Of a stretch of 32,000 nucleotides of DNA, positions 614-32,000 are shown one piece after another (position 1 is the stretch's first letter; each line of letters starts with the position of its first letter). The notes under the pieces are model-generated. The model saw only the letters and a list, made by a program, of their open reading frames with translations. It made no database searches and was not told where the DNA came from. The position numbers and the translations under genes are program-made. The stretch covers positions 60,001 to 92,000 of the forward strand of contig NZ_JAHDSX010000002.1 in NCBI RefSeq assembly GCF_020969955.1, written 5' to 3'. Origin of the DNA: Allobaculum fili (GTDB lineage: Bacteria > Bacillota_I > Bacilli_A > Erysipelotrichales > Erysipelotrichaceae).

Positions 614-3235
614 ATGGCAATGCGAAAGCTGAAAAAATACAAACCTACAAAGTTCAAGGCTCGCACATCTTATTACGATAAGGAAGCAGCCGACTATGCG
701 GTTAACTTTATCCAGTGCCTGTGCCACACCAAAGGAACCTGGGCTGGTAAACCCTTTGAGCTGATCGACTGGCAGGAACAGATCGTGAGGGATCTGTTTG
801 GAATCAAAAAAAAGAACGGTTATCGTCAGTTCAATACAGCCTATATTGAGATAGGAAAAAAGATGGGCAAACAAGTTGCGTTAAATACATTAATTCCTAC
901 TCCAAAAGGCTTTACCACGATGGGGGAGATCAAGGTTGGCGATACCGTATTCGATGAAACCGGATCTCCGTGTCACGTAGTGGCCAAGAGTCAGGTCGAT
1001 TTTGACGAGCAGGCCTATCGTATTGTGTTCAAAGATGGAGAGGTCATCGAAGCTGGTGAGAACCATCAGTGGATTGGAGAGAAGCATCAAAAACCGATAA
1101 TGATGACAACCGGTGACTTGTACAGGTATTTCCAAACCAAATCCTACAATTTTCGGATTGCTGTCAATGGAGCGCTGGAAGCCCCTGAAGCGGAGCTGCC
1201 GATCGATCCATACCTGATGGGGTATTGGCTTGGTAACGGACATGCCACCAAGCCAGAAATTACTGTAAAGACTTCCGATGTTCCGGAAGTCCTTTTTAAT
1301 GTCCAGCAGAACACTGTAGTCAACAACGCCTGGTTGAATGTTGGCGACTCACTAATTTTCAAAATCAACGAGCTGAAGCCAGTCCTGCTCAAGTCATTCC
1401 ATGACAAAGTGATTCCGATTGAATATCTTCGTGCCTCTAAAGAACAACGGCTCCGCCTTTTGCAGGGATTGATGGACTCTGATGGATGTATCTCAGGAGT
1501 AAAAGGACAAGGAGTTTACTACTCCACAGAAAAGAGGTTAGCGGAAACAGTTAGTGAACTCCTGTGGACGCTGGGAATCAAAAATGCGATCACCTCAACT
1601 CCATCTACGCAACCGGCTAATAGGGATATGCCAAGCCAGGAATGTGGCAGAGTTGCTACCGGTGAAACCTGCTATATGATCAAATTCACCTGCTTTGACG
1701 ATGTGAAAGTTGCTGGTCTATCCAGAAAACTAAAGAATCGGATTCCCAGAAATCCAACGACCAGATCCCATTTTCGATATATCGACTCGATTGAGAAAAT
1801 CGAGAACCGAGGAATGCAATGCATCCAGGTGGATAGCCCGTCCCATCAATACTTGATTGGCAAAAGCTGTCTTCCAACGCACAACTCAGAGCTTGCAGCG
1901 GCCATTGCATTGCTCCTCACCTGCGGAGATGGAGAGCAGCGAGCTGAAGTGTACGGCTGCGCTTCGGATCGTCAGCAGGCATCCATTGTTTTTGATGTTG
2001 CTGCTGACATGGTCCGGATGTGTCCGGCTTTGAACAAGCGCTGCAAAATCCTCGCTTCTCAGAAACGGCTGGTGTATCTGCCCACGAATAGCTTCTATCA
2101 GGTTCTTTCCGCTGAAGCCTACTCGAAGCACGGCTTCAACATTCACGGAGTTATCTTCGATGAGCTACATTCCCAACCAAATCGAAAACTACACGACGTT
2201 ATGACCAAAGGTTCCGGGGATGCCAGGATGCAGCCCCTCTTCTTTCAGATCACCACTGCAGGAACAGATACCAACTCGATCTGCTATGAGGTCCACCAGA
2301 AAGCTAAGGACATTCTGGAAGGCAGAAAGGTCGATCCGACCTTCTATCCAGTCATCTATGGAGCTGATCCGGATGATGATTGGACCGATCCCAAGGTGTG
2401 GAAAAAAGTTAATCCCTCCTTGGGGATTACCGTTCCAATTGAAAAAGTCCAGGACGCTTGTGAATCCGCTAAGCAGAATCCTGCTGAAGAGAATGCGTTC
2501 CGGCAGCTAAGACTTTGCCAGTGGGTCAAACAATCCATCCGCTGGATGCCAATGGACAAATGGGACCTTTGCGCTTTCCCCGTTATCCCGGAAGAGCTCG
2601 AAGGCCGTGTTTGTTATGGAGGCTTGGACCTTTCCAGTACCACCGATATCACCGCCTTTGTTCTGGTCTTCCCTCCTATTGAGGAGGATGAACCATATCA
2701 GATCCTGCCGTACTTCTGGATTCCAGAAGACAGCCTGGATTTGCGTGTAAAGCGGGATCATGTTCCCTATGATATATGGAAGAAGCAGGGCTACCTGGAA
2801 ACTACCGAAGGAAATGTTATTCATTACGGATTCATCGAGAAGTTCATCGAGCGGCTTGGTGAAAAGTTCAACATCAAGGAGATTGCTTTTGACCGCTGGG
2901 GTGCTGTTCAGATGGTTCAGAACCTCGAAGGCATGGGCTTCACCGTCGTGCCCTTTGGCCAGGGCTTCAAGGATATGTCTCCGCCAACCAAGGAGCTGAT
3001 GAAGCTAGTGCTGGAAAAGAAGATAGCCCATGGCGGACATCCAGTTCTTCGCTGGATGATGGATAACATCTTTATTCGTACTGACCCTGCGGGTAATATT
3101 AAAGCAGATAAGGAGAAGTCCACAGAGAAGATCGACGGTGTGATTGCCACTGTCATGGGGTTGGACCGTGCTATTCGCTGTGGAAACATCAGCACCGAGA
3201 GTGTGTATGACAGTCGAGGTCTGCTGGTGTTTTAA
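614..3235 (+). CDS. terL: Terminase large subunit (Terminase_1-type), intein-containing precursor
   Basis: The ATPase Walker A YIEIGKKMGK is interrupted and resumes at SELAAAIALLL. Walker B is HGVIFDELH. C-terminal RNaseH-like nuclease motifs are present (GLDLSSTTDITAF, AFDRWGA, KIDGVIATVMGL). GGAGG RBS lies 7 nt upstream. The gene sits at the start of a portal-protease-capsid module. Confidence 0.95.
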   Translation: MAMRKLKKYKPTKFKARTSYYDKEAADYAVNFIQCLCHTKGTWAGKPFELIDWQEQIVRDLFGIKKKNGYRQFNTAYIEIGKKMGKQVALNTLIPTPKGFTTMGEIKVGDTVFDETGSPCHVVAKSQVDFDEQAYRIVFKDGEVIEAGENHQWIGEKHQKPIMMTTGDLYRYFQTKSYNFRIAVNGALEAPEAELPIDPYLMGYWLGNGHATKPEITVKTSDVPEVLFNVQQNTVVNNAWLNVGDSLIFKINELKPVLLKSFHDKVIPIEYLRASKEQRLRLLQGLMDSDGCISGVKGQGVYYSTEKRLAETVSELLWTLGIKNAITSTPSTQPANRDMPSQECGRVATGETCYMIKFTCFDDVKVAGLSRKLKNRIPRNPTTRSHFRYIDSIEKIENRGMQCIQVDSPSHQYLIGKSCLPTHNSELAAAIALLLTCGDGEQRAEVYGCASDRQQASIVFDVAADMVRMCPALNKRCKILASQKRLVYLPTNSFYQVLSAEAYSKHGFNIHGVIFDELHSQPNRKLHDVMTKGSGDARMQPLFFQITTAGTDTNSICYEVHQKAKDILEGRKVDPTFYPVIYGADPDDDWTDPKVWKKVNPSLGITVPIEKVQDACESAKQNPAEENAFRQLRLCQWVKQSIRWMPMDKWDLCAFPVIPEELEGRVCYGGLDLSSTTDITAFVLVFPPIEEDEPYQILPYFWIPEDSLDLRVKRDHVPYDIWKKQGYLETTEGNVIHYGFIEKFIERLGEKFNIKEIAFDRWGAVQMVQNLEGMGFTVVPFGQGFKDMSPPTKELMKLVLEKKIAHGGHPVLRWMMDNIFIRTDPAGNIKADKEKSTEKIDGVIATVMGLDRAIRCGNISTESVYDSRGLLVF
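872..1885 (+). mobile_element. Intein (338 aa, Gln87-Asn424 of TerL) with LAGLIDADG homing-endonuclease domain and class-3-type WCT signature
   Basis: Block A is QVALNTLIPTPKGF. Block B is GEVIEAGENHQW (His151, Trp153). LAGLIDADG motifs are PYLMGYWLGNGHA and LLQGLMDSDGCIS. Block F is MQCIQVDSPSHQYLIG (Cys403). Block G is LPTHN followed by +1 Ser425. Removing it rejoins GKKMGK|SELAAAIALL into an intact P-loop. Confidence 0.85.
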
Positions 3236-19427: not shown

Positions 19428-19845
19428 AGACGATAAACTGATCCGCTTTTTACGAAATCTGATTGTCTTTCTGACCAAAGAGGTCGTAAACGCTGGTGGT
19501 GATCCAGCAGAGTTTGATCTTGGCTTTCCTGTGTACAAGCAGAATTCCACTTACAAGGCTGGTGAGATCTTCCGGGATCGGGAATCTGACCAGCCTTTTG
19601 AATGCCTTGTCGACTACGACGGCAACATTCATCCCGACTGGAATCAATCCGTAGCGACCATCTGGAAACCGTATCATGGCAAAGATAAGGATCATGCCTA
19701 TCCCTGGGCAGCTCCTAGCGGTGCTCATGATCTGTATAAGTCTGGAGAGTTCATGACCTTCACAGATGGAGAAATCTACAAGGCACTGAGCGATACAGCG
19801 TTCAGTCCAACGGATCTTCCAACCGCTTGGGAAAAACAAGTATGA
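19414..19845 (+). CDS. Small protein with two CBM5/12-like (chitin-binding-type) aromatic repeats
   Basis: Two segments, YKAGEIF...PDWNQSVATIWKPY and YKSGEFMTFTDGEIYKAL...PTAWEKQ, match the Y..G..v..dG..Y.....P....W pattern. The start may be 19414 or 19420. Confidence 0.5.
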   Translation: MLMNEDDKLIRFLRNLIVFLTKEVVNAGGDPAEFDLGFPVYKQNSTYKAGEIFRDRESDQPFECLVDYDGNIHPDWNQSVATIWKPYHGKDKDHAYPWAAPSGAHDLYKSGEFMTFTDGEIYKALSDTAFSPTDLPTAWEKQV

Positions 19846-19859
19846 AAGGAGATGTTTCT

Positions 19860-20063
19860 ATGAGCAGCAAAACGAAAACCTGGATCAAAGCAGCAGCCGT
19901 CCGCGCGATTAAAACTGTAGCGCAGACGGCTGTTGGCGTTATTGGAGCTTCCGCTCTGATTACCGAGGTCGACTTTCTTGTCGTCCTTTCTGCCTCCGCA
20001 CTGGCTGGTCTGGTCAGCCTTCTGACTTCTGTAGCCGGTCTTCCGGAGGTGGAGAATGCCTGA
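19860..20063 (+). CDS. Holin candidate
   Basis: 67 aa after AAAGGAG. The motif WIKAAAVRAIKTVAQTAVGVI plus a second hydrophobic helix resembles small Gram-positive phage holins. It lies directly upstream of the endolysin. Confidence 0.65.
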   Translation: MSSKTKTWIKAAAVRAIKTVAQTAVGVIGASALITEVDFLVVLSASALAGLVSLLTSVAGLPEVENA

Positions 20064-20415
20064 ACTGGAAACAAGCATTGTCTGGCTTGGAGCCATTGCA
20101 GGAGCGCTGTCTTCTATCGCGGCGCTCCTTTCTTTGGCTTTTAAGCCATTCCTGAAGCTCAAAGAGCGTGTGAGAGTCCTGGAAGATGAGATTCGAACTC
20201 TCAAAGATGAGCTGGCTGAGCACCAGGACAAGCTCAACAAAGACCATCACAGCTTTCTGCTGCAGCAGGATGTAAACCGGCTTCTGCTCGAGTCCACATC
20301 CAACCTGCTCAAGCACAACGTGGATGGCAACAATACCAAACAAATGATGGACTGCGCCAGACGAATCGATGATCTTGTTTTCGCCAGAGGCAGCAGCATT
20401 AAGGAGGAACTATGA
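20056..20415 (+). CDS. Lysis-module membrane-anchored coiled-coil protein (holin partner or regulator?)
   Basis: N-terminal TM segment IVWLGAIAGALSSIAALLSLAF followed by a coiled-coil region. It overlaps both the holin and endolysin genes. Confidence 0.5.
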   Translation: MPELETSIVWLGAIAGALSSIAALLSLAFKPFLKLKERVRVLEDEIRTLKDELAEHQDKLNKDHHSFLLQQDVNRLLLESTSNLLKHNVDGNNTKQMMDCARRIDDLVFARGSSIKEEL

Positions 20416-21368
20416 CCTATTCAACACTGATCAATGGATCGACACCGATCTACAATAAATGCAATCCGAGAACTTCCAAAATCACCAAAATTACTCCTCA
20501 CCACATGGCGGGAAATATGGGTGCAGCTGCTTGTGCCAAGTATCATCGAGACAGCGACCGGCAGGCTTCTGCCAACTACTACATTGGAACCGACGGAACC
20601 ATCTGGGGCGGTGTTCCGGAAGAGTTCAGAGCCTGGACGTCCAGCTCCTGGGACAATGACAACCATGCCATCACAATCGAGGTGGCCAATTCCTCGACTG
20701 GTGGAAACTGGCCAGTCTCCGATGCTGCATTCAATTCTCTGGTCAGACTGTGCAATGACATCTGCCAGCGGTATGGTATCGAGCTTTCCTGGACTGGAAC
20801 TGCATCTGGAACGCTCACCTGCCATGATATGTTTGCGGCTACCAACTGCCCAGGTCCATACCTGAAATCGAAATTCCCAGAGCTGGTACGTCTGGTGAAC
20901 AGCAGCACTGTGAGCAATGAGCCAATCAAAAAATCCGTTGATGTCATCGCAAAGGAAGTCATCAACGGAAAATGGGGCAATGGAGATGATCGGAAGAACC
21001 GGCTGACCGGCGCCGGATACGACTACAATGCCATTCAGGCAAAGGTCAACGAGCTGCTGGAGCAGAAAGCGAAACCTGCTGCTCCGGCAAAGAAGTCCAA
21101 TGATGTGATTGCCCAGGAAGTCATCAATGGCAAGTGGGGGAACGGAAACGATCGGATCAACCGTCTGGAAGCGGCTGGATATGATCCGACTGCTATTCAG
21201 GCTCTGGTCAACCAGAAACTGGGGGCTGGAAAGAAGAGCGTTGATATAGTTGCCCGAGAGGTTATTGCAGGTAAATGGGGGAATGGTCAGGACCGTGTTA
21301 ATCGACTGAAAAATGCTGGCTATGATCCAGCAAGCGTGCAGACGCGCGTAAACGAAATTCTGAAATAG
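20412..21368 (+). CDS. Endolysin: N-acetylmuramoyl-L-alanine amidase (Amidase_2/PGRP) with three Cpl-7 (CW_7) wall-binding repeats
   Basis: AAGGAGG RBS. Amidase_2 motifs are ITPHHMAG, NHAITIEVAN and CHDMFAATNCPG. Three repeats match VI(A)(K/Q/R)EVI.GKWGNG.DR.NRL..AGYD...(I/V)Q..VN. Confidence 0.93.
   Translation: MTYSTLINGSTPIYNKCNPRTSKITKITPHHMAGNMGAAACAKYHRDSDRQASANYYIGTDGTIWGGVPEEFRAWTSSSWDNDNHAITIEVANSSTGGNWPVSDAAFNSLVRLCNDICQRYGIELSWTGTASGTLTCHDMFAATNCPGPYLKSKFPELVRLVNSSTVSNEPIKKSVDVIAKEVINGKWGNGDDRKNRLTGAGYDYNAIQAKVNELLEQKAKPAAPAKKSNDVIAQEVINGKWGNGNDRINRLEAAGYDPTAIQALVNQKLGAGKKSVDIVAREVIAGKWGNGQDRVNRLKNAGYDPASVQTRVNEILK
20931..21359 (+). repeat. Three coding Cpl-7/CW_7 repeats within the endolysin
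   Basis: The repeats cover aa 174-216, 228-269 and 274-316 of the endolysin and share the KWGNG.DR.NRL..AGYD core. Confidence 0.8.
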
Positions 21369-21370
21369 TC

Positions 21371-21421
21371 AAACAGCCAGAAGGCTTCACCGTCAGTGGT
21401 GAGGCTTGCTAGCTGTTTTTG
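21371..21421. terminator. Bidirectional terminator between the convergent endolysin and minus-strand module
   Basis: A 21-position imperfect stem pairs AAACAGCCAGAAGGCTTCACC with GGTGAGGCTTGCTAGCTGTTT (2 mismatches, 2 G-U) around a 6-nt loop. The 3' arm ends in TTT and two further T residues follow (TTTTT in all, 21416-21420, then GTGTTT). The opposite strand has a T-containing tail. Confidence 0.7.
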
Positions 21422-21465
21422 TGTTTATTCCATTTTGCTGACATTCACATTATCATTTCAACAAG

Positions 21466-21639
21466 TCATTTAGTTCGCTTCAAGATAAAACCATAGAGCA
21501 CGGCAACCAAAAGAAATATCAAAACGCAACTAAAGGCTTTAGAAGTATCGCCTTCTTTAATCGCCATAATCAACTCCATAGCGACTAAGGTGAGCACAAC
21601 GCTAAAACCGACTTGAATAATCCTAGTCCTTTTTACCAT
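21466..21639 (-). CDS. Tiny 2-TM membrane protein (57 aa from the SD-supported ATG; 63 aa from the first ATG)
   Basis: Hydrophobic segments are IIQVGFSVVLTLVAMELIMAI and FSCVLIFLLVAVLYGFIL. AGAGGA lies just upstream of the second ATG. It is co-oriented with and 27-45 nt downstream of the T5orf172 gene. Confidence 0.55.
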   Translation of the reverse strand: MVKRTRIIQVGFSVVLTLVAMELIMAIKEGDTSKAFSCVLIFLLVAVLYGFILKRTK

Positions 21640-21684
21640 TTTTCCTCTATCTCCCATGGAATAGAAATCTGTCTCATGTGACAG

Positions 21685-22356
21685 CTATCGGCTTCGATAG
21701 CTGTCTATTGGCTTTCCATTTGAATCCTTCCATACTCGCCAGCCATTTACGTTGTTTCCCAGTACGACAACGCCAGCAATCGAAACGGAAGAACATGGAA
21801 GATCTTTCTGAAGGACATTATCTATGATTAAAGCATTCTTCCTATATTTATATGCTGATTCATATTCAGAAGGTGCACAGATACTGCCCTTTTTAAGCAT
21901 CAGTTTTCCGTTCTTGATTTCGAGTTTCGCCTCGATCTTTCCAAAGCCCTTTCTATTCGAGCTTATCGTATAGATCCCGTTAGGGAGCAGACCGCTCTCC
22001 TCTTCTTCTTGTTTTTCTACCGCATTTTCAAAAGCATCTTCTTTCGTTCCTTCTTTAGGATAGATTTTCTTGCCATCGAACGCAGACAACAATTGGATCA
22101 CCATTTCCAAATCTGCTGCGAATAGCTCTGTCTGTCCGATTCGGCTCTTGCTGAAAATGTTATGGAGCAAAGCTTCTTTTTCTATATATCCGTCCACTTC
22201 GATTGCAAACTGACGGGTTAAAGCTGTCACATTTGAATAGCCGTTCTTTTCGAGGTTATACATTCTCTCCTCAAACCTTGAGCTTCCGGTCCTGCCAATT
22301 TTGATCAAACCCGGAACAGCCGTAGACATTACATACAAAATCCCTCTCGCCATCAT
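21685..22356 (-). CDS. GIY-YIG-superfamily T5orf172 (MUG113-like) domain protein fused to a DUF4357-type C-terminal domain
   Basis: The N-terminus GILYVMSTAVPGLIKIGRTGSSRFEERMYNL...EKEALLHNIFSKSRIGQTELF matches the T5orf172 consensus. The C-terminus ...KLMLKKGSICAPS...CSSVSIAGVVVLGNNVNGWRVWKDSNGKPIDSYR matches the DUF4357 pattern. A GAGG SD lies 6 nt before the ATG. Confidence 0.85.
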   Translation of the reverse strand: MMARGILYVMSTAVPGLIKIGRTGSSRFEERMYNLEKNGYSNVTALTRQFAIEVDGYIEKEALLHNIFSKSRIGQTELFAADLEMVIQLLSAFDGKKIYPKEGTKEDAFENAVEKQEEEESGLLPNGIYTISSNRKGFGKIEAKLEIKNGKLMLKKGSICAPSEYESAYKYRKNALIIDNVLQKDLPCSSVSIAGVVVLGNNVNGWRVWKDSNGKPIDSYRSR

Positions 22357-22370
22357 TAATTTCCTCTTAG

Positions 22371-22403
22371 CCAGATTCTGTTTTTGAAAGAATCTGGTTT
22401 TTT
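22371..22403 (+). promoter_or_regulatory. Perfect inverted repeat with T-run: + strand intrinsic terminator and/or operator in the divergent region
   Basis: CCAGATTCT (22371-22379) / AGAATCTGG (22389-22397) with a 9-nt loop, then TTTTTT (22398-22403). It lies 15 nt upstream of the minus-strand gene start and 53 nt upstream of the + strand early ORF. Confidence 0.55.
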
Positions 22404-22455
22404 CTTGTCACAAATCTACCTTCCTCACGGCTACCCAGTGAAGGAGGTAATCATC

Positions 22456-22725
22456 ATGGATGAATTCCAAAAAGAACTTCTCAATGTTCTGAACAGAATT
22501 GCCGACGCTCTTCACGCATCAAAGCCTGCTTCGGTCACTCCTACTGCACCCGAGCAGCCAAAGCTCTCGCTTGAAGAAGTCAGAGCAATTCTCGCTGAAA
22601 AATCCAGAGCCGGTTTTACAGCAAAGATTCAGCTGCTGCTTGAAAAGTATGGTGCAAGCAAACTTTCCAAGATTGATGCTGGACACTATCAGGCTCTTGT
22701 CAAAGATGTGGAGGAGCTGAAATGA
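22456..22725 (+). CDS. Small conserved early protein (function unknown)
   Basis: ATG 22456 lies after AAGGAGG. 89 aa. The C-terminal segment LSLEEVRAILAEKSRAGFTAKIQLLLEKYGASKLSKIDAGHYQAL is of a type I recall preceding DUF2800 genes. Confidence 0.6.
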   Translation: MDEFQKELLNVLNRIADALHASKPASVTPTAPEQPKLSLEEVRAILAEKSRAGFTAKIQLLLEKYGASKLSKIDAGHYQALVKDVEELK

Positions 22726-23831
22726 GTCATAGCATACTTTCTCCATCCTCGTCCCATCGTTGGCTTCATTGTACGCCATCCGCAAGGCTTGAAGAACCCT
22801 ATCCGGATACTTCCGGTCTTGCAGCCAAAGAAGGAACAGCCGCTCATGCCCTGTGTGAGTACAAGCTGAAGACAGCGCTCGGCATGAAGTCGACTCGTCC
22901 CGAATCTGATTTCCAGGATGAAGCAATGGAACAGCACTCGGACGAATACGTCTCCTGGATTCTGGAAACCATCAAGGATGAGATCAAACCGGTCATCATG
23001 ATCGAACAGAAACTCGACCTGTCCGCTTACGTCCCAGAAGGCTTTGGAACGGCTGACTGCATTATTGCCAGTGATAACAAACTGCATGTGATCGACTTCA
23101 AGTACGGATTGGGTGTGTTGGTCAATGCAGAAAACAACACCCAGATGATGCTGTATGCACTTGGTGCTCTTGAACTATTCGATGCCATCTTCGATATCGA
23201 TACCATCGAAATGACAGTTTTCCAGCCGCGCAAAGAAAACATCAGCTCCTGGACCATCACACCGGATGAGCTGAAAATCTGGGCTCATGAGGTTCTCAAG
23301 CCTAAAGCAGAACTTGCCTTTAACGGCAAAGGCGAACTTTGCAATGGTTCCTGGTGTCAGTTTTGCAAAGCTGCAGCCAAATGCAGAAAACGCGCAGAGG
23401 CAGCGCTGGAATTGGCCAAGGATGAATTCAAAGATCCAACAAGCCTTTCTGATGAAGAAATCGAAAAAATTCTTCCCAAGCTGGATGATCTGATCAAATG
23501 GGCAGAAGAGATCAAAGAGTACGCCCAGCACAAAGCCCTGCAAGGGAAAAAGTGGAATGGATTCAAGCTTGTCGCTGGCCGTTCCAATCGCAAGTACGTA
23601 AGTGAAGCCAAAGTCATCGCCGCCTGTCAGGCTGCCGGATTCACAGACATCTACAAGAAAAGTCTGAGAACCATCACAGATATGGAAAAAGTCATGACCA
23701 AGCCCGTCTTCCAGGAGATTCTAGGAAACCTGGTCACCAAACCAGTCGGAAAACCAACCCTGGTCCCTGTCTCAGACAAACGAAAAGAAATCGAATTTAC
23801 GGAGGAAACTGAAAATGAAAGCAAACACTAA
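22722..23831 (+). CDS. DUF2800-type PD-(D/E)XK nuclease (Cas4-like, Fe-S cysteine cluster)
   Basis: The N-terminus MSHSILSPSSSHRWLHC is typical of DUF2800. The nuclease core is GTADCII...HVIDFKYG. The cysteines are HC...CNGSWCQFCKAAAKC. Confidence 0.85.
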   Translation: MSHSILSPSSSHRWLHCTPSARLEEPYPDTSGLAAKEGTAAHALCEYKLKTALGMKSTRPESDFQDEAMEQHSDEYVSWILETIKDEIKPVIMIEQKLDLSAYVPEGFGTADCIIASDNKLHVIDFKYGLGVLVNAENNTQMMLYALGALELFDAIFDIDTIEMTVFQPRKENISSWTITPDELKIWAHEVLKPKAELAFNGKGELCNGSWCQFCKAAAKCRKRAEAALELAKDEFKDPTSLSDEEIEKILPKLDDLIKWAEEIKEYAQHKALQGKKWNGFKLVAGRSNRKYVSEAKVIAACQAAGFTDIYKKSLRTITDMEKVMTKPVFQEILGNLVTKPVGKPTLVPVSDKRKEIEFTEETENESKH

Positions 23832-24360
23832 AGTCGTAACCGGTAAAGAAACCCGCCTGTCCTACTTCAACGGATGGAAACCTGTCTCCATCAATGGCGG
23901 AGATGAAAAATACTCTACCCAGATCCTGATCCCCAAGGATGACCTGGATACACTGGCCGCTATTGAAAAAGCGGTGGACGCAGCCATCGAAAACGGTCTG
24001 GCCAAATTCGGTGGCAAGAAGCCAAACAAACAGGCTATCAAGCTCCCACTGCGTGATGGCGATATCGAACGAGACGACGACGTCTATAAAGGCCACTACT
24101 TCCTGAATGCTTCCAGTACGGAAGCTCCACAGATCGTTGACCGTCGCGTTCAGCCAATCCTTGACCAGAGTGAGGTTTACTCCGGCTGCTATGCCAGAGT
24201 TTCTCTGAACTTCTACGCGTTCAACTCCAATGGCAATAAAGGTGTCGCCTGCGGTCTGGGCAACATTCAGAAGATCAAAGACGGTCCTCGTCTGGGTGGC
24301 AGAACAACCGCAAATGACGACTTCGTCAGTGAGGATGCCGACGATGACTTCCTCTCGTAG
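23815..24360 (+). CDS. DUF2815-type protein (putative ssDNA-binding protein of the replication module)
   Basis: 181 aa. The N-terminus VVTGKETRLSYFNGWKP... and the acidic C-terminal tail DDFVSEDADDDFLS are SSB-like. It sits between the DUF2800 and polymerase genes. Confidence 0.7.
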   Translation: MKANTKVVTGKETRLSYFNGWKPVSINGGDEKYSTQILIPKDDLDTLAAIEKAVDAAIENGLAKFGGKKPNKQAIKLPLRDGDIERDDDVYKGHYFLNASSTEAPQIVDRRVQPILDQSEVYSGCYARVSLNFYAFNSNGNKGVACGLGNIQKIKDGPRLGGRTTANDDFVSEDADDDFLS

Positions 24361-26269
24361 GCTGTTCATCGACATCGAGACCTCTTCTACGACCGACTTA
24401 TCCAAAGCGGGCGTTTACCGCTATGCAGAGAGCGAGGATTTCCAGATCCTGCTCTTTGCATTTTCCTTTGATGGTGATCCTGTGGATGTGATCGACATGA
24501 GGCACTTTGAAGCACTGCCTGATTTTCTAATCGAAGCCATTCTCGATCCGGATGTGACCAAAGTGGCGCATAATGCGGCGTTTGAAAGAATCTGCCTCTC
24601 CCGGTATTTTCGCGATCTTGGAATGCTTGACGAATACGAGTTTCTTGACCCGGAAGACTGGCAATGCTCTATGGTACACGCAGCAACACTTGGACTACCG
24701 CTTTCTCTTGACCAGCTCTCTGAGGTTCTTCAGCTGGAACGACCAAAGCTCAAGGAAGGCAGAGCGCTGATCAAAATGTTCTGCAATGGTCCTGTTGAAA
24801 ATGAAGATCCAGCAAAGTGGAGTCTGTTCAAGGAATACAACAGACGCGATGTGGAAGCAGAAATTGAGATCGAACGACGGTTGATAAAGTTTCCGGTCAG
24901 AGCGTCTATATGGACGGAGTACCAATTGGATCAACGAATCAACGATGCTGGTGTTCTGGTCGATATCAATCTTGCCAAAAATGCTCTGGAAATTAGTGAG
25001 ACAGCCAAAGAATCGCTGCTCAAACGTCTTCAGGAAATGACCGGATTGGAGAATCCAAACTCACCCTCACAGATGAAAGAGTGGCTTTTGCAGCAGAATC
25101 TGCCAACAGACACTCTCAACCAGAAAGCCATGAAGGTACTAATGGAGAAAGCCTCTAACAATATACGAACCGTTCTTGCTCTTCGTAACCAGCTGGCTAT
25201 GGCCTCGGTTAAGAAGTATGAAGCCATGCTCAACTCGGCTTGTTCGGACGGACGAATTCGCGGGATGTTTCAATTCTACGGAGCCATTCGCACAGGCAGA
25301 TATTCCGGAAGAATTGTGCAGCTCCAGAACCTCCCCAGGAACAAAATGCCGGATCTCAAAGAAGCAAGAAGTCTTGTTGCCGATAAGAATATACAAGCTT
25401 TGGAAATGCTGTATGACGATATTCCCGACACGCTTTCTCAACTCATCAGAACAGCTCTTGTTGCTCCTGATGGAAAAGACTTCATCGTCGCTGACTTCTC
25501 CGCTATCGAGGCCAGAGTTCTTTCCTGGCTGGCAGAAGAAGAATGGCGCCAGGCAGTCTTCAAAGAGAACGGCGACATCTATTGCGAAACGGCCAGCCGA
25601 ATGTTCAAGGTTCCCGTCGTCAAACACGGTGTGAACGGTGATCTCAGACAGAAAGGTAAACAAGCAGAATTGGCCTGTGGCTATGGTGGCTCAGTAGGAG
25701 CCATGAAAGCCATGGGTGCATTGGATTTCGGAATGAAGGAAGAAGAACTCAAACCACTGGTTGATTCCTGGCGTGAAGCCAATCCGAAGATCGTGAAGTA
25801 TTGGTGGGCAGTTGATGCTGCCATCAAGAAAGCGATCAGGACCAAACAACCGGTGTTTCTAAAGAACCTGGTCTTCTCTCATTCGTCTGGCATCCTCTTC
25901 ATTCAGCTTCCTTCTGGCAGGTCACTGGCTTACCCAAAACCCAGGATCGAGAGCAATGAATATGGAACAGAATCGGTGACGTACATGGGGCTAGGTTTAA
26001 ACAAGAAATGGGAGAGGCTGGAAAGCTATGGTCCGAAGTTTGTCGAAAACATCACCCAGGCTATCTCAAGAGATCTTCTCATGAATGCCATGAGCAACTG
26101 TCAAAAATACAAAATCGTCGCTCATGTCCACGATGAAATCATCGTGGAGGCAGATCCCAGCATGAACGCTGAAACGGTCTGCCAGAAGATGTGTGAGCTG
26201 CCATCATGGGCAAACGGTCTGGTGCTCAATGCCGAAGGGTACAGAACTCCCTTCTATTGCAAAGATTAG
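24344..26269 (+). CDS. Family A DNA polymerase with N-terminal 3'-5' exonuclease domain
   Basis: Exo I is LFIDIETSS. Pol motif A is VADFSAIEARVLSW, motif B is RQKGKQAELACGYGGS and motif C is AHVHDEIIVE. ATG 24344 is chosen because GAGGA lies 8 nt upstream. The 24230 start would overlap the preceding gene by 130 nt. Confidence 0.93.
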   Translation: MTSSRRLFIDIETSSTTDLSKAGVYRYAESEDFQILLFAFSFDGDPVDVIDMRHFEALPDFLIEAILDPDVTKVAHNAAFERICLSRYFRDLGMLDEYEFLDPEDWQCSMVHAATLGLPLSLDQLSEVLQLERPKLKEGRALIKMFCNGPVENEDPAKWSLFKEYNRRDVEAEIEIERRLIKFPVRASIWTEYQLDQRINDAGVLVDINLAKNALEISETAKESLLKRLQEMTGLENPNSPSQMKEWLLQQNLPTDTLNQKAMKVLMEKASNNIRTVLALRNQLAMASVKKYEAMLNSACSDGRIRGMFQFYGAIRTGRYSGRIVQLQNLPRNKMPDLKEARSLVADKNIQALEMLYDDIPDTLSQLIRTALVAPDGKDFIVADFSAIEARVLSWLAEEEWRQAVFKENGDIYCETASRMFKVPVVKHGVNGDLRQKGKQAELACGYGGSVGAMKAMGALDFGMKEEELKPLVDSWREANPKIVKYWWAVDAAIKKAIRTKQPVFLKNLVFSHSSGILFIQLPSGRSLAYPKPRIESNEYGTESVTYMGLGLNKKWERLESYGPKFVENITQAISRDLLMNAMSNCQKYKIVAHVHDEIIVEADPSMNAETVCQKMCELPSWANGLVLNAEGYRTPFYCKD

Positions 26270-26686: not shown

Positions 26687-26756
26687 TCCTAACGTCGAAT
26701 TTACTGGATAATACGGCCTTTCAGAGTGATATATGGACCAACGAAAGGAGATCCAC

Positions 26757-27953
26757 ATGATCAAACAACTGAAACGGGTCGCAGCCTATTGCAGAGTTTC
26801 GGTGGAATCCGAGTTGATGCAGTCTTCCATTACAAATCAGATCGCCCACTTCACCAACAAGATCAATGACAATCCGCTCTGGCAAAACGCAGGTGTGTTT
26901 GCAGACTACGGCATCAGCGGTACCAACACAAAGAAGCGGCCTCAATTCAACCGGATGATTGCATTGGCCTTGCAAGGCAAGATTGATCTGATTCTGGCCA
27001 AGTCTATCCAACGATTCGCCAGGAACACCGTCGACCTTTTGGCAACCATCCGCCAGCTGAAAGAACACAACGTGGAGGTGTTTTTTGAGAAAGAAAACAT
27101 CTCCACGTTCAGCCATGATGGAGAATTCATGCTATCCATCATGGCTTCTTTTGCCCAGGAGGAAAGCCGAAGCATATCCGACAACATCCGCTGGGGTATT
27201 AAGAAGCGCTTTGAACAAGGCATTCCAAACGGACGAAATCCAGTCTTTGGTTACGACTGGAAAGGTGATGATCTGATCGTGAATGAGACCGAAGGCTGGA
27301 TCGTCACAAAGATGTTTCAAGATTATGCCGACGGAATGCGGGTTCGAGACATTCAGGAATGGATGAATCAGACCGGAGTGAAGACCCGGAAAGGCAATGG
27401 CTTCATGCCTGCAACGATCAAAGCCATGCTTGCTAACCCAACCTATACTGGAGTGCTGCTGCTTTGCAAAGAATACGTCGGTGATCCGATTCTGCATGAT
27501 AGGCATAAGAACCAGGGAGAGCTGCCGCAGTACCTGGTCGAAGACCATCACGAACCGCTGGTGGATGAAGAGACCTGGACAAGAGCGCAAGAACGGACCG
27601 AACAAAACCGGCGTTCAAATATGAACCGAAAAACGGTCAATGCTTTTACCGGAAAACTGAGATGCAAAGAATGCGGACGAAACTTCCAGCGAATTATCCA
27701 GCACTACAAAGAACGAAGTTACATCTATTGGCAGTGTTACACAAAACGCTGCCAGCTAGGTGAATGCCATTCCTTGAATCTTGATGAAGAGACTCTAGAA
27801 CAGATCGCTACCAAAATGCTGGAAATGAAAAAGTTCGATCCCACCATTTTTCGACAACAAGTCGAAGTCATCGAAGTCGAACCAGACGGAACCTTGGAGT
27901 TCCACTTTACAGATGGAAGGAGAAAGACATGCAAGTACGAAAAATCCCAGTAA
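26757..27953 (+). CDS. Large serine recombinase 1 (short form, about 398 aa)
   Basis: The catalytic region is VAAYCRVSVESE...ILAKSIQRFARNTVD...SFAQEESRSISDNIRWG. It also has a recombinase domain and a zinc ribbon CKECG...CYTKRCQLGEC. AAAGGAG RBS lies before ATG 26757. Confidence 0.92.
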   Translation: MIKQLKRVAAYCRVSVESELMQSSITNQIAHFTNKINDNPLWQNAGVFADYGISGTNTKKRPQFNRMIALALQGKIDLILAKSIQRFARNTVDLLATIRQLKEHNVEVFFEKENISTFSHDGEFMLSIMASFAQEESRSISDNIRWGIKKRFEQGIPNGRNPVFGYDWKGDDLIVNETEGWIVTKMFQDYADGMRVRDIQEWMNQTGVKTRKGNGFMPATIKAMLANPTYTGVLLLCKEYVGDPILHDRHKNQGELPQYLVEDHHEPLVDEETWTRAQERTEQNRRSNMNRKTVNAFTGKLRCKECGRNFQRIIQHYKERSYIYWQCYTKRCQLGECHSLNLDEETLEQIATKMLEMKKFDPTIFRQQVEVIEVEPDGTLEFHFTDGRRKTCKYEKSQ

Positions 27954-29503
27954 CCAGAACGATGGCCAGAGTTCAGCCAATCATCGCCAGAAAGAACGTA
28001 GCCGCCTATGCCAGGGTTTCTACCGACCGGGATGAGCAGCAGACCAGCTATGAAACCCAGGTTTCCTACTATGAGAACATGATCCGCGAACGAGCGGATT
28101 GGAACTTCGTGAACGTCTATACCGATGAAGGCATCAGCGGAACCAGCACAGCCCACCGTGAAGGCTTCAAGCAGATGATCCAGGACGCACTGGACCACAA
28201 GATCGACTTGATCATCACCAAGTCCGTCAGTCGGTTTGCCAGAAACACGGTTGACTCACTGACAACCATTCGGGAACTCAAAGAACACGGCGTGGAGGTC
28301 TACTTCGAAAAAGAGAACATCTGGACCTTCGATGGCAAAGGAGAACTGCTGCTGACGATCATGTCCTCCCTGGCGCAGGAAGAAAGCCGCAGCATCTCCG
28401 AAAACGTGAAGTGGGGTGTCCGGAAGAAATACGAAGAAGGCTCCTACCGCATCCCCTACGGAAACCTCATGGGCTATACAAGAGCTGAAGACGGTGGTGT
28501 CATGATCGTTGAAGAAGAAGCCAAGATTGTCCGGTTGATCTTCAAGATGTTTCTGGAAGGCAGTACCTACACGGACATCAAGAACTACCTGGAAAGCCAG
28601 CACATCAAGACCAAGTTTGGTCGAGATAAATGGGATATCCGAGTGATCAAGCAAATGTTGATGAACGAGAAATACAAAGGTGACCTGCTTCTCCAGAAAG
28701 TCTACACGCCAGACTTTATCACCAAGAAGCAGGTCAAGAACAAGGGCGCCATTCCTTCCTATTACATCACCAACTCCCATCAGGGAATCATCAGGGTGGA
28801 GGACTTCGACAAAGTCCAGAAGATGATCAAGGACCGTAAATACAGGTTTGGTAAAGAGCGACTCGGCTGCCATACACCATACCCATTCAGCCACCGAGTT
28901 CAATGCGCTATCTGCAAGTCCTGGTATACCAGAAGTGTTACCACCCGGTCGAACGGAAAGAAAGTGCCAGTGTGGTTATGCTGGAAGAACAAGTATGAAA
29001 GCGAGCAGCGTTGCCCATCACATCAGGTGATGGAGACTGTGTTGGAAGAAGAGTTTGTGATGGCGGTAAACGAATTGCTCCAGGACAAGCAAAGCATCCT
29101 CGATGAATGGAGCGAGAAGTTCAATACCACCTACAACATTGACAAGCTCCAAACCAAAGCCGATCGCATCCAGACAAGGATGGAGAAAATCGCTGAGAAA
29201 GCCGAGAAGCTGATCGAACAAACACCTACCAACTTCAACGAAGCCTACAACCAGCTGCTGATTGAATACGAGCAGCTTGATAAAGACCACGCAAAGCTGG
29301 CAGCCAAAATCAGGGATCTGCAATACGAAGGCGAACGAACACAACATTACCTAGAACTTCTTCAGAAACTTGACCACGTGTACGCGTTCGATGGCGATCT
29401 GGTCAGAGCGATGGTCGACAAGGTGATGGTGTACAAGAACCGGACGCTGATGTATTGCTTTGTAGGCGGTCGGAAGATCAAGCGAGAACCGGTGAAGAAG
29501 TGA
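27929..29503 (+). CDS. Large serine recombinase 2 (524 aa, with C-terminal coiled coil)
   Basis: The catalytic region is VAAYARVSTDRDEQ...IITKSVSRFARNTVD...SLAQEESRSISENVKWG. It also has a zinc ribbon CAICKSW...CWKNKYESEQRCPSH and a long coiled coil. It overlaps recombinase 1 by 25 nt and has a GGAAGGAG RBS. Confidence 0.93.
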   Translation: MQVRKIPVTRTMARVQPIIARKNVAAYARVSTDRDEQQTSYETQVSYYENMIRERADWNFVNVYTDEGISGTSTAHREGFKQMIQDALDHKIDLIITKSVSRFARNTVDSLTTIRELKEHGVEVYFEKENIWTFDGKGELLLTIMSSLAQEESRSISENVKWGVRKKYEEGSYRIPYGNLMGYTRAEDGGVMIVEEEAKIVRLIFKMFLEGSTYTDIKNYLESQHIKTKFGRDKWDIRVIKQMLMNEKYKGDLLLQKVYTPDFITKKQVKNKGAIPSYYITNSHQGIIRVEDFDKVQKMIKDRKYRFGKERLGCHTPYPFSHRVQCAICKSWYTRSVTTRSNGKKVPVWLCWKNKYESEQRCPSHQVMETVLEEEFVMAVNELLQDKQSILDEWSEKFNTTYNIDKLQTKADRIQTRMEKIAEKAEKLIEQTPTNFNEAYNQLLIEYEQLDKDHAKLAAKIRDLQYEGERTQHYLELLQKLDHVYAFDGDLVRAMVDKVMVYKNRTLMYCFVGGRKIKREPVKK

Positions 29504-29631: not shown

Positions 29632-32000
29632 TTACAAATCTTGCGACAGATTGTTCGCCATTAGTTCTGCCTGAGAAAGAACCAGCTCAATCGCACCAGG
29701 GATTTCTTCAGGAGGATAATGATACTTCCTCAAAAGGCGTCTAATATTTTTGCGGATTCCGGCTCTGGCACTTTCTTTGCGTTGCCAGTCAATCGAGACA
29801 CTATGCCGAAGAATATCCGTGAGCTCTTTTGCAATTTGTACCAGCTGATCGTTTTCATAAAAGTCTTTAACCGCTTCCGGCTTGCAGAGAGCATCATAGA
29901 AAGCAACTTCTTCAACAGATAAGCCCAGATCATTTCCAGCCTGACTGGCATTCCGGATATCTTTAGCCATCCGCATCAATTCCTCAATCACTTCTTCATT
30001 CGTTATCAAACCATTCACATAGGAATTTAACGCCTTCTTCAAGCGATCAGAAAACTCTTCTGACTTAACAACATTAGTTCTTTTAAAGCCACGGATTTCA
30101 TCATTCAGTAGTCTTTTCAGAAGTTCCAGGGATAGATTTTTTTCCTTCATATTTCTGATTTCCTCTAAGAAGTCAGTATCAAAAAGTGAAAATTCTTTCT
30201 CGTGATCTGAGAAAAGGCTTATCACGCCATCACTCTTAATCGTCTGTTTCAGAAGTTCATTAATTTGAGCATTCACTTCTTTCAAAGACAGCCTGCCCGA
30301 AGCACCAGAAGTCGAAATCCGATTTAAAAGCGTTTTTACAGCGATAAAATAACCCGCTTCTCTTTGTTGTTCATCATCAACCAAACTGCTGCACAGGGAA
30401 AGAGACTGCTTCAAGCGCTGGGCTTCCTTGATAAACTTGAACTGTGCTCTTTCTTTTTCTGGAATATTCATTTCTTGATGGGTTAAATCCATGATGTAAT
30501 TCACCCCACCTGTGATTGCTCTTCCTTTTTCCAAATCCGTACCTTGCAAAAAGGACTTATAGTCGTACCCTTTGAATAAGTCTCTACAGCCGAATAGAGC
30601 CTCTTCAAATATTGGAAGTGCCTTTTTCTTAATATCTGGGTCACCAAAGTTCTTCTGGTCGCTCTTGGTATAGTCCTTCATTGCTTGCTTTAATGCGGAA
30701 GCAATACCGATATAATCGACTACAAGTCCGCCCTCTTTATCCCCGAACACACGATTCACTCTGGCAATCGCCTGCATCAGGTTATGACCGCTCATTGGTT
30801 TAAAAACATACATAGTAGCCAAAGATGGAACATCAAAACCCGTCAGCCACATGTCACGAACAATCGCAATCTTGAAATCAGACTCGTTATCTTTGAATTC
30901 TTTTGCTAAATCTGCTCGATACTTATCCGTGCCTGTATATTCGTGCCACTCTTCTGGATCTTTATTACTTCCAGTCATTACAATCTTGACTTTTTTATCC
31001 CAGGTAGGTTCCAGCTCTAGCATCTTATGGTAAAGCTTCACGGCAATTTCTCTGGAGTAAGCAACGATCAGTGCTTTCCCAGTCAATAAATTTTCACGAT
31101 TTTCTTTGTAGTGAGTAATTATATCTCTCGCTAGAGAGTCAATCGTTTCATCGCTACCAAGAATCGCCTCCATATTGCTTAGTTCTTTTTTACTTTTATC
31201 AATTGTGATCTCATCTGCCTCAGCAGCCAACATATCGTAAGTGTTATCGATTCTTCGAAGAGTCTCTTCATCGAGCTTCAGCTTCATAACCCGGCTTTCA
31301 TAGTAAACCGGTCTGGTTGCACCATCTTCAACAGCCTGAGTCATGTCGTAGATATCGATATAATCGCCAAACACAGCTCTCGTGTCTTTATCTTCAGAAT
31401 CAATTGGAGTTCCGGTGAAACCAATGTAGGTCGCATTTGGAAGACTATCACGGACCTTCTTAGCTGCTCCGATTACAGTTTTAGCGAGAATATTCCCATA
31501 CTGATCCTTGGTTGTTACAAATTTTTCTGTTAGTCCATACTGACTTCGGTGTGCCTCATCTGCCATAACGATAATATTCTTCCGTTTAGATAAGGCACCC
31601 CATTCATCCTCGAATTTTGCCATAATGGTGAAGATGATTCCGCCACTTTGTCTGTTATTTAAAAGCTCATACAGATTGTCTCTGGAGGTAGCTTGAACAG
31701 GCGTTTGACGCAGGAACTTATGACAATCCGAGAAAGTCTTGAATAGTTGATCGTCAAGATCGCGGCGATCAGTAAGGACAACAAAAGTTGGATCATCCAT
31801 TTGCTGGTCTAATAAATGAGTATAGAAAACCATAGACAGCGACTTACCGCTGCCTTGAGTATGCCAAAACACTCCTCCTCGTCCGTCTGTTTTTGAAGCC
31901 AGCATTGTAGAATGAACGGCTTTCTCAACAGCAAAATACTGATGATATCCAGCTAGAATCTTGATTAACCGACCACCAGGCGTCATGAATAAAATGAAGT
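29632..32000 (-). CDS. hsdR: Type I restriction enzyme R subunit (partial; the N-terminal region lies beyond the window)
   Basis: Helicase motifs are WHTQGSGKS (I), MADEAHRSQ (II, DEAH), FTGTP (III) and QAIARVNR (VI). The C-terminal tail ...[11 protein letters not shown]... is typical of HsdR. The frame stays open upstream of the listed Met to the window edge. Confidence 0.93.

Follow-up and report, generated by a model that had tools for sequence, protein, structure and literature searches.

Introduction

The PDC families are candidate defence genes that were picked for their embedding in BREX, DISARM or type I restriction-modification (RM) systems, and the systems validated in the same preprint are seven others, not PDCs (Payne et al. 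2024 preprint, bioRxiv 10.1101/2024.01.29.577857). One such family, PDC-S57, has a phage-borne member that is the subject of this study: a 223-amino-acid (aa) protein encoded in a small cargo cassette of a prophage in Allobaculum fili. The DNA analysed is a stretch of 32,000 nucleotides (nt) of contig NZ_JAHDSX010000002.1 (positions 60,001 to 92,000), which as a whole is called the window, and all positions given below are those of the full window. The protein joins an N-terminal domain of the T5orf172/GIY-YIG type to a C-terminal DUF4357/RAMA-like domain. Experiments have shown T5orf172 proteins to be active nucleases that need a conserved Arg and a conserved Glu (PMC8263062, PMC10448857). 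RAMA was proposed to be a reader of N6-methyladenine (m6A) that is fused to methylases and nucleases, T5orf172 included (Iyer et al. 2016, PMC4738411), and fusions of GIY-YIG to RAMA have been pointed out as candidate type IV enzymes that await study (Helbrecht et al. 2024, PMC11037411). DUF4357, for its part, has been described on the type IV enzymes GmrSD and McrB (PMC4619093, PMC5714182, PMC11090510).

We argue here that the locus carries a single-gene accessory endonuclease, kept as cargo by the prophage, that would protect the lysogen, perhaps in a type IV-like manner. We put this reading forward tentatively, at slightly less than an even chance, and weigh it below against three alternatives, each at the point where the evidence that bears on it arises.

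Identity of the 223-aa protein

The nuclease candidate is encoded at 21685-22356 on the minus strand. PADLOC matches it to PDC-S57 (model PDLC05040, E=5e-96), with residues 2-222 lying on model positions 1-226 of 229 and 221 of the 223 residues covered; its C-terminal half gives an additional PADLOC match, to PDC-S14. An earlier note on this DNA, made from the letters alone, had seen a "clear T5orf172" N-domain and a DUF4357-type C-domain in the protein and had called for searches with hidden Markov models (HMMs). These searches bore out the C-domain (approximately residues 122-223, 21688-21993, minus strand), for which Pfam DUF4357 (PF14267) scores 43.4 bits against a cutoff of 38.4 over residues 181-216. 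"Clear" was too strong a word for the N-domain (approximately residues 1-100, 22057-22356, minus strand), where the window protein has no above-threshold Pfam match: MUG113, a close relative of T5orf172, falls short of its cutoff (19.6 against 22.3 bits), and T5orf172 itself is not among the matches. The assignment to the T5orf172 type is nevertheless supported by the fold and by other members of the family. When 24 members were scanned singly, DUF4357 was found in all of them and T5orf172 in 14 (best 1.1e-8), while MUG113 was found in five and RAMA, below threshold, in 21; many homologues also carry precomputed PF10544 matches.

The AlphaFold (AF2) models have a predicted local distance difference test score (pLDDT) of 89.7 at full length and of 91.9 for the C-domain. 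Compared with BFVD by Foldseek, the N-domain has T5orf172, MUG113 and GIY-YIG viral proteins as its top matches (probability 1.0, root mean square deviation 2-3 Å over ~90 residues). Among these matches is ICP1 ORF88 (F1D1B0), which we take to be Gp88/Odn. In the Protein Data Bank (PDB) the N-domain found weak matches only (Slx1, probability 0.33), the full-length and C-domain models had no match at E<0.2 and none of note to a RAMA or GIY-YIG structure, and profile searches against PDB sequences gave chance-level matches only. R31 and E77 are invariant in a 24-sequence alignment and Y8 is nearly so; from the order of the motifs, we infer that these would be the catalytic-type Tyr (Y8), Arg (R31) and Glu (E77). 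When the family was compared by hhalign with residues 1-97 of I-TevI, the FE.R motif was aligned, but the match was not significant.

Among the representatives of clusters at 50% identity, about 1,640 are relatives of the C-domain, and of 58 that differ in length from the 223-aa protein, 57 match DUF4357 and 25 match RAMA (best 2.6e-96). Because these longer proteins match RAMA strongly, the Pfam models for DUF4357 and RAMA overlap in sequence space. Across the relatives the domain is partnered with T5orf172/GIY-YIG, HEPN_Swt1, TIR_2 and STAND NTPase domains, and the DUF4357/RAMA-like domain is usually taken for a module that binds DNA or reads its modification. It also forms tandem arrays, with 3-6 copies each, in 500-1200-aa proteins (P0132, P0159, P0169, P0209, P0272 and others) and is found joined to sigma-70 domains. 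Within the C-domain, the differences between the window protein and that of L182, a related phage contig with both cargo genes, cluster at residues 153-171 (~21844-21900; M153L, Y165N, S167A, Y169L and Y171H). The same stretch is the least conserved of the C-domain across the family and may be a specificity-determining segment.

No methyltransferase was found in the cassette or among the window ORFs (open reading frames) that were scanned, some small ORFs having been left unscanned. A reader-nuclease fusion with no cognate methyltransferase is the architecture of a type IV enzyme, and the 223-aa protein, with its putative reader domain, presents it. For a lone nuclease without a methylase, a type IV-like, reader-directed mode would be the most economical.

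The cargo cassette and its slot

The gene lies in a cassette of ~0.98 kb (~21416-22398) that is foreign to the phage backbone and contains two ORFs, both on the minus strand. In L097, the closest relative (endolysin 88%, DUF2800 protein 94% and single-stranded DNA-binding protein (SSB) 99% identical), both cargo genes are missing; homology to the window extends past the endolysin stop codon and a hairpin at 21371-21418, ends at ~21413-21420 and restarts at 22399. In two further contigs, L001 and L002, the cassette sits on another left flank, and the switch falls exactly at the equivalent of 21416. Taken together, these comparisons place the cargo at ~21416-22398, and they assign the left hairpin to the phage itself and a 9-bp inverted repeat near the right border to the cargo. 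The left flank is the endolysin gene (20412-21368, plus strand; Amidase_2 and three CW_7 repeats), the last of the lysis cassette, and the right flank is an 89-aa gene (22456-22725, plus strand, with GGAGG before its ATG at 22456), the first of the early/replication operon.

L001 and L002 are the two that reach furthest among six contigs (L001-L006) of a 98%-identical variant, all of which end 0-75 bp beyond the small ORF of the cassette; the unrelated flank is seen at L001:5891-5966 and L002:5891-5964. Since this flank begins at the 21416 equivalent, the cassette occurs on at least two backbones, and assembly graphs branch there.

The composition of the cassette agrees with a foreign origin. 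The earlier note had judged the region A+T-rich by eye, and the numbers confirm it: the guanine-plus-cytosine (GC) fraction is 0.406 for the cassette, whereas other 978-bp windows of the phage have a mean of 0.482 +/- 0.019 and a minimum of 0.421, and along the sequence it falls from 0.47-0.52 in the flanks to 0.40-0.42 in the module. The orientation is equally distinctive. The window is a prophage arm in which all phage genes are on the plus strand except the two cargo ORFs, which had been described as the only minus-strand genes of the arm; this holds, as its other minus-strand ORFs of at least 100 aa all overlap plus-strand genes, and no further real gene is apparent among them. The cassette thus lies between conserved modules, has an odd composition and its own orientation and terminators, and varies among relatives, all of which mark it as moron-like; the position between lysis cassette and early genes, which had been called the classic one for morons, is indeed one at which the insertion is variable.

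The slot between the lysis-operon terminator and the early/replication operon has three states on backbones that are 81-99% identical. The first is that of the window, with the nuclease gene and the small ORF. In the second, found in a sister phage (L177-L181) with a backbone 81-95% identical to that of the window, a 75%-identical nuclease gene stands alone in the same slot; its stop codon is 70 bp from the convergent endolysin gene in L177, and the small ORF and the 9-bp repeat are both missing. The third is that of L097, which has an unrelated gene for a 368-aa protein (L097:3391-4497, minus strand) whose sole recognisable feature is an N-terminal SEC-C metal-binding motif. This protein belongs to no PADLOC or NCBIfam family, and its PADLOC matches were set aside as meaningless because they are confined to the SEC-C motif; this cargo, too, may have an accessory or defence role. 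NatCom_2329 (PV036414), a Ruminococcus phage that is more distant, has the same gene order and, at the same position, a 125-aa ORF (L096:2690-3067, minus strand) with no match in Pfam, PADLOC or NCBIfam. Because this slot, too, holds an antisense ORF, the slot is a recurrent site for antisense cargo.

Is the gene there for the benefit of the phage and its host, or for its own? Presence/absence and allelic polymorphism at a fixed site among near-identical phages also fits the main rival of our reading, in which the gene is a selfish, free-standing nuclease of the homing type that cuts empty or alternative alleles of the slot and is copied in with its cassette by repair, at no benefit to the host. 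T5orf172 is a major homing-endonuclease domain of phages, and such nuclease genes mark boundaries of genetic exchange (PMC10448857). The N-terminal half of the window protein matches a PHROG annotated 'homing endonuclease' (E=1.3e-7), the junctions of the cassette are sharp and lie at an intergenic site between conserved modules, the cassette is found with two different left flanks, and TerL of the same phage carries an apparent LAGLIDADG insertion. However, the T5orf172 homing enzymes of phages carry CapR/DUF723/DUF4397 zinc-finger DNA-binding domains, not DUF4357 (PMC10448857), and the C-domain is highly conserved across unrelated contexts, although a site-specific enzyme would not need it. 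The gene is also antisense to its neighbours, and, as set out in the next section, the family is overwhelmingly chromosomal and its members are often preceded by restriction genes. On balance we regard a selfish nuclease as unlikely, yet as a serious rival.

Distribution and neighbourhoods of the family

A search for homologues of the 223-aa protein returned 1,356 matches at E<=1e-3, nearly all of 220-235 aa and of the same architecture, so that the T5orf172-DUF4357/RAMA family is widespread, with more than 1,350 clusters at 90% identity. Identity is at least 50% across Firmicutes, Negativicutes, Synergistota, Actinobacteria and Bacteroidota, and members also occur in metagenome-assembled genomes labelled Saccharibacteria and Methanobrevibacter. 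Such uniform length and architecture, with identity of at least 50% across phyla, suggest strong selection together with horizontal transfer. With 160 confirmed stretches in species genomes, against two viral contigs and no GenBank phage record, the family is overwhelmingly chromosomal.

We surveyed the neighbourhoods of 80 species-genome loci and two IMG/VR loci, the upstream gene being counted over 77 loci. In 9-10 of these 77 the upstream gene encodes a type I HsdR on the same strand, at a median gap of -25 nt. Both viral-contig copies are preceded by large same-strand ORFs whose sizes match a type III Mod/Res pair, an identity that Pfam confirms (N6_N4_Mtase, ResIII) for L094 only, and the homologue P0006 abuts ResIII and Eco57I. 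Elsewhere the surroundings are diverse: in about 85% of homologues the immediate neighbours include no restriction gene, and downstream genes vary (HIT, ArsR, helix-turn-helix and housekeeping genes, with HsdM at only two loci), so that no conserved downstream partner emerges.

Two further observations concern single taxa. In Veillonella (L018, L063, L065, L080, L081, L085 and L087) the gene occupies a fixed site between radical-SAM/UPF0004 (MiaB-like) and HIT-family genes. In Neisseria gonorrhoeae NZ_CP119140.1 an unannotated stretch at 890139-890514 corresponds, at 46% identity and in two pieces, to the N-terminal nuclease half only (residues 2-119); this is perhaps a pseudogene, or else the second PDC-S57 model type. 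The Neisseria gonorrhoeae records are chromosomes that are filed in a plasmid collection.

The restriction neighbours could be read in another way, namely that the protein does not act on its own. It might be an accessory of RM systems, a backup or guard nuclease as PrrC is for EcoprrI, or a nuclease-derived DNA-binding regulator or repair factor, and the prophage copy would then be a passenger. The same-strand HsdR neighbours with their overlapping genes are what one would expect of an accessory, the PDC concept is itself built on embedding in restriction systems, and the prophage is integrated beside a type I hsdR; furthermore, domesticated T5orf172 proteins can be repressors, CapR being an example (PMC8096241). 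But the roughly 85% of copies that have no adjoining restriction gene do not fit this explanation, nor does the phage cassette, which has no such partner, the hsdR gene being 7 kb off and outside the prophage, and the invariant catalytic-type residues argue against a purely regulatory role. We consider dependence on a restriction system, or a regulatory role, improbable for this protein.

The small membrane ORF and the inverted repeats

The second ORF of the cassette follows the nuclease gene after a gap of 45 nt and has its own ribosome-binding site (RBS), AGAGGAAAA, which is conserved in L182 and precedes the ATG at 21639. It encodes a 57-aa protein with two transmembrane (TM) segments (21466-21639, minus strand). 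The two hydrophobic segments of the small protein are residues 7-27 and 35-53. Read from the ATG at 21657 (21466-21657, minus strand) the protein has 63 aa. The earlier note had allowed for either length of a two-TM protein; the two segments are there, but the 63-aa form is not retained, because a 1-nt indel puts the upstream ATG (21657) out of frame in L182 and leaves a protein of 57 aa.

The ORF is probably coding, to judge from its pattern of change. In L182 it stays open at 87% nucleotide identity, with eight synonymous and 11 mostly conservative non-synonymous codon changes, both TM segments are kept at 81% identity, and a rough ratio of non-synonymous to synonymous change (dN/dS) is near 0.45; a codon comparison with the 98%-identical contigs gave too few changes to be informative. 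It is also lineage-specific. Only three clusters, among 5.8 billion, represent the small protein, all of them beside the nuclease in one phage lineage, with no relatives outside that lineage and no PADLOC match. In the neighbourhood survey a comparable small hydrophobic ORF downstream of the nuclease was found at none of the 82 loci (80 genomic, two viral), and it is absent from L177, where the nuclease alone in the slot serves as a natural deletion control and shows that the conserved unit is one gene.

These results bear on the proposal that the two genes form a single module, an abortive-infection or exclusion system in which the nuclease has an obligate two-TM effector or partner and the hairpin at the stop codon controls their coupling. 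The two genes do travel together within the lineage, even onto a different left flank, the gap between them is short, the small ORF has its own RBS, and its open frame, retained TM segments and dN/dS of ~0.45 in L182 suggest a functional protein. Against an obligate pairing stand the genomic and viral homologues that have no similar ORF, the solitary nuclease of L177, the confinement of the small protein to one lineage, and the fate of the hairpins in L182 that is described below. A two-gene module therefore does not survive the survey of neighbourhoods, and we hold it to be very improbable; the 57-aa membrane protein is better described as an extra of this lineage that the nuclease can do without.

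All three inverted repeats in and around the cassette are real, in that each folds better than 200 of 200 shuffles of its own sequence. They had been interpreted as a terminator fence around the module and as a regulatory switch within it, and only part of this interpretation holds. The left hairpin (21371-21418; -26.3 kcal/mol on the plus strand and -23.7 on the minus strand, where no more than a weak U-run follows) is the terminator of the lysis operon, into which the convergent cargo genes also run. It is kept in L182 and L187 and also in L097, and because L097 has it without the cargo, it belongs to the phage backbone and not to the module. The right-hand element (22371-22403), a 9-bp inverted repeat (22371-22397) followed by a T6 run that spans the junction, is as real as had been claimed and is borne by the cargo (-14.6 kcal/mol, z=-4.6), being present in L182 and absent from L177 and L097. 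On the plus strand it looks like a terminator that would stop transcription running antisense through the cargo; on the minus strand it would be a hairpin in the leader of the large gene, ending 5 nt short of that gene's RBS. It had also been suggested to overlap a likely promoter or 5' untranslated region; no sigma-70-like promoter was found for the module. The sole promoter-like site nearby (21432-21461, minus strand) comes after the small ORF and faces the terminator of the backbone, with no obvious gene behind it.

The third repeat (21680-21705, minus strand) straddles the stop codon of the large gene. Its stem is perfect, as described before, although it has 11 bp rather than 10, and no U-tract follows it; the region 21655-21712 folds at -20.9 kcal/mol (z=-5.7). 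It is possibly a 3' stabiliser or a weak terminator. Regulated coupling through two mutually exclusive hairpins, as the earlier note supposed, did not find support: in L182 the CTGTC/GACAG alternative is lost, with a different hairpin in its place, and 7 of the 11 pairs of the main stem are left, while in L177 the stem is absent. A search of 21000-22800 against Rfam returned nothing near threshold.

Interpretation

Why would a temperate phage carry such a gene? In the scenario that we favour, a cassette of ~0.98 kb was acquired horizontally into a variable slot of a temperate siphophage, where it is transcribed against the phage genes. The prophage would express the 223-aa protein in the lysogen, the C-domain would bind incoming DNA and discriminate foreign from host, and the N-terminal GIY-YIG domain of the T5orf172 type would cut the foreign DNA. 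The outcome would be single-chain, type IV-like restriction that serves superinfection exclusion. The defence role proposed here is suggested by membership in PDC-S57, by the restriction neighbours of the family, by the partners of the C-domain in conflict systems, by a patchy distribution that reflects horizontal transfer and by the antisense, foreign and swappable position of the cassette.

Several observations weigh against a protective, modification-directed nuclease. With respect to the phage context, the family is nearly absent from phages (none of 50,697 GenBank phage records and two loci in 2.9 million IMG/VR contigs), and because the promoter scan upstream of the module detected no sigma-70-like site, expression in the lysogen is an assumption. 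With respect to defence, many homologues lie amid housekeeping genes, the Veillonella loci have no defence genes as direct neighbours, and neither an experiment on the family nor a test of PDC-S57 was found in the searchable literature. With respect to reading m6A, Pfam RAMA (PF18755) scores 15.7 bits against a cutoff of 35.2 and covers model positions 66-99 of 107 only, a weak match; the solved RAMA structures, CcrM 6PBD and MPND 7YDT, were outside the Foldseek top 50, where no match had E<0.7; and in the crystal study of MPND the contacts between RAMA and DNA were independent of sequence, with no preference for binding 6mA (PMC9963953). Given the MPND result and the failure of Foldseek to return a RAMA structure, both RAMA membership and m6A reading are only putative for the 223-aa protein. 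Furthermore, co-transcription of family members with type I and type III systems, which write m6A, argues against a general m6A-dependent cutter.

A bolder version of the single-gene reading would have the protein be a working single-chain restriction enzyme whose DUF4357/RAMA-type domain reads modification, the first characterised RAMA-reader member of its kind, captured by a temperate phage for superinfection exclusion, with the 57-aa protein as a second, independent exclusion layer. So much at once seems doubtful to us. Our literature searches found no characterised RAMA-nuclease fusion.

The locus, in any case, lends itself to testing: a single 223-aa gene lies in a 1-kb cassette whose borders are defined, and there are natural comparison phages that have the nuclease and the small ORF, the nuclease alone, or an unrelated gene in the slot. 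A clear phenotype would decide whether PDC-S57 truly acts in defence, and it would also answer a question left by the structures of MPND and CcrM, namely whether domains of the RAMA type are readers of DNA modification. If, instead, the gene is selfish, then homing-type T5orf172 nucleases would be extended to temperate gut phages.

Other genes of the window

The remaining genes of the prophage arm follow one another on the plus strand. TerL, portal, ClpP-type protease and capsid genes are present, as are the tape measure and tail genes, and an r1t-type holin gene (19827-20063) is found in addition to the endolysin gene. After the 89-aa gene the early block continues with a DUF2800 PD-(D/E)XK nuclease, an Enc34-type SSB and PolA, and two large serine recombinase genes in overlapping tandem (26733-27953 and 27929-29503) mark the prophage end. 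They are adjoined by a host type I hsdR gene (29632-31986, minus strand), and the observation that the prophage sits beside a type I hsdR is thus correct. A suspected N-terminal truncation of hsdR was ruled out, as the window ends inside a 1029-aa gene; the 1029-aa hsdR of L187 has the HSDR_N domain.

In TerL (614-3235, plus strand, 873 aa), residues 278-333, which precede the ATPase and nuclease domains, match LAGLIDADG_3, as though an intein or a homing endonuclease had been inserted there. The gene for the family A DNA polymerase (24230-26269, plus strand) is a 679-aa ORF in the window, whereas near-identical phages (L001, L002 and L187) have it annotated with 641, 751 or 950 aa, and the DUF2800 gene is broken into 206 and 128 aa in some contigs. 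The varying polymerase lengths and the split DUF2800 gene suggest indels, an intein or frameshifts.

Comparison with known systems

T4 Imm and the Sie proteins of lactococcal phages are small membrane proteins that block superinfection. The likeness extends to the 57-aa ORF only, which is a short two-TM protein in a moron position, and comes without sequence similarity.

For the nuclease, PDC-S57 is the closest system, with the full-length HMM match, the same length and architecture, and a family that is often found beside type I or type III restriction genes. The difference is that the window copy travels as cargo of a prophage rather than within a restriction system, and PDC status is itself a prediction. 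The GIY-YIG-RAMA and T5orf172-RAMA fusions (PMC4738411, PMC11037411) resemble it in that one short polypeptide holds both the nuclease and a C-terminal RAMA-like domain, and the cassette encodes no methyltransferase, but the RAMA match of the window protein is partial and below threshold, and solved RAMA folds are not recovered by Foldseek. Odn of ICP1 (Gp88, PMC8263062) is, likewise, a phage-encoded two-domain T5orf172 nuclease engaged in mobile-element conflict, and, with ORF88 taken to be Gp88, it is a structural match of the N-domain. Unlike the window protein, it has an N-terminal RepA_N-like targeting domain and belongs to a lytic phage, where it attacks a satellite. The best worked-out functional analogues are the wH-GIY-YIG type IV enzymes Ahi29725I and Apa233I (PMC11037411), which join a small reader domain to a GIY-YIG nuclease; their reader, however, is a winged helix, their domain order is reversed and their m6A dependence has been shown.

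The earlier note had seen in this locus a plausible new defence or exclusion module. Candidacy for defence fits both the full-length match to PDC-S57 and the restriction neighbours of the family, but the module is not new: a catalogue of candidates already lists the family, earlier papers remark on its architecture (PMC4738411, PMC11037411), and the window copy is a phage-borne member of it. What this study adds to the known systems is a defined cassette with its borders, a slot with three states, and evidence that the small membrane ORF is not required for the nuclease to be kept.

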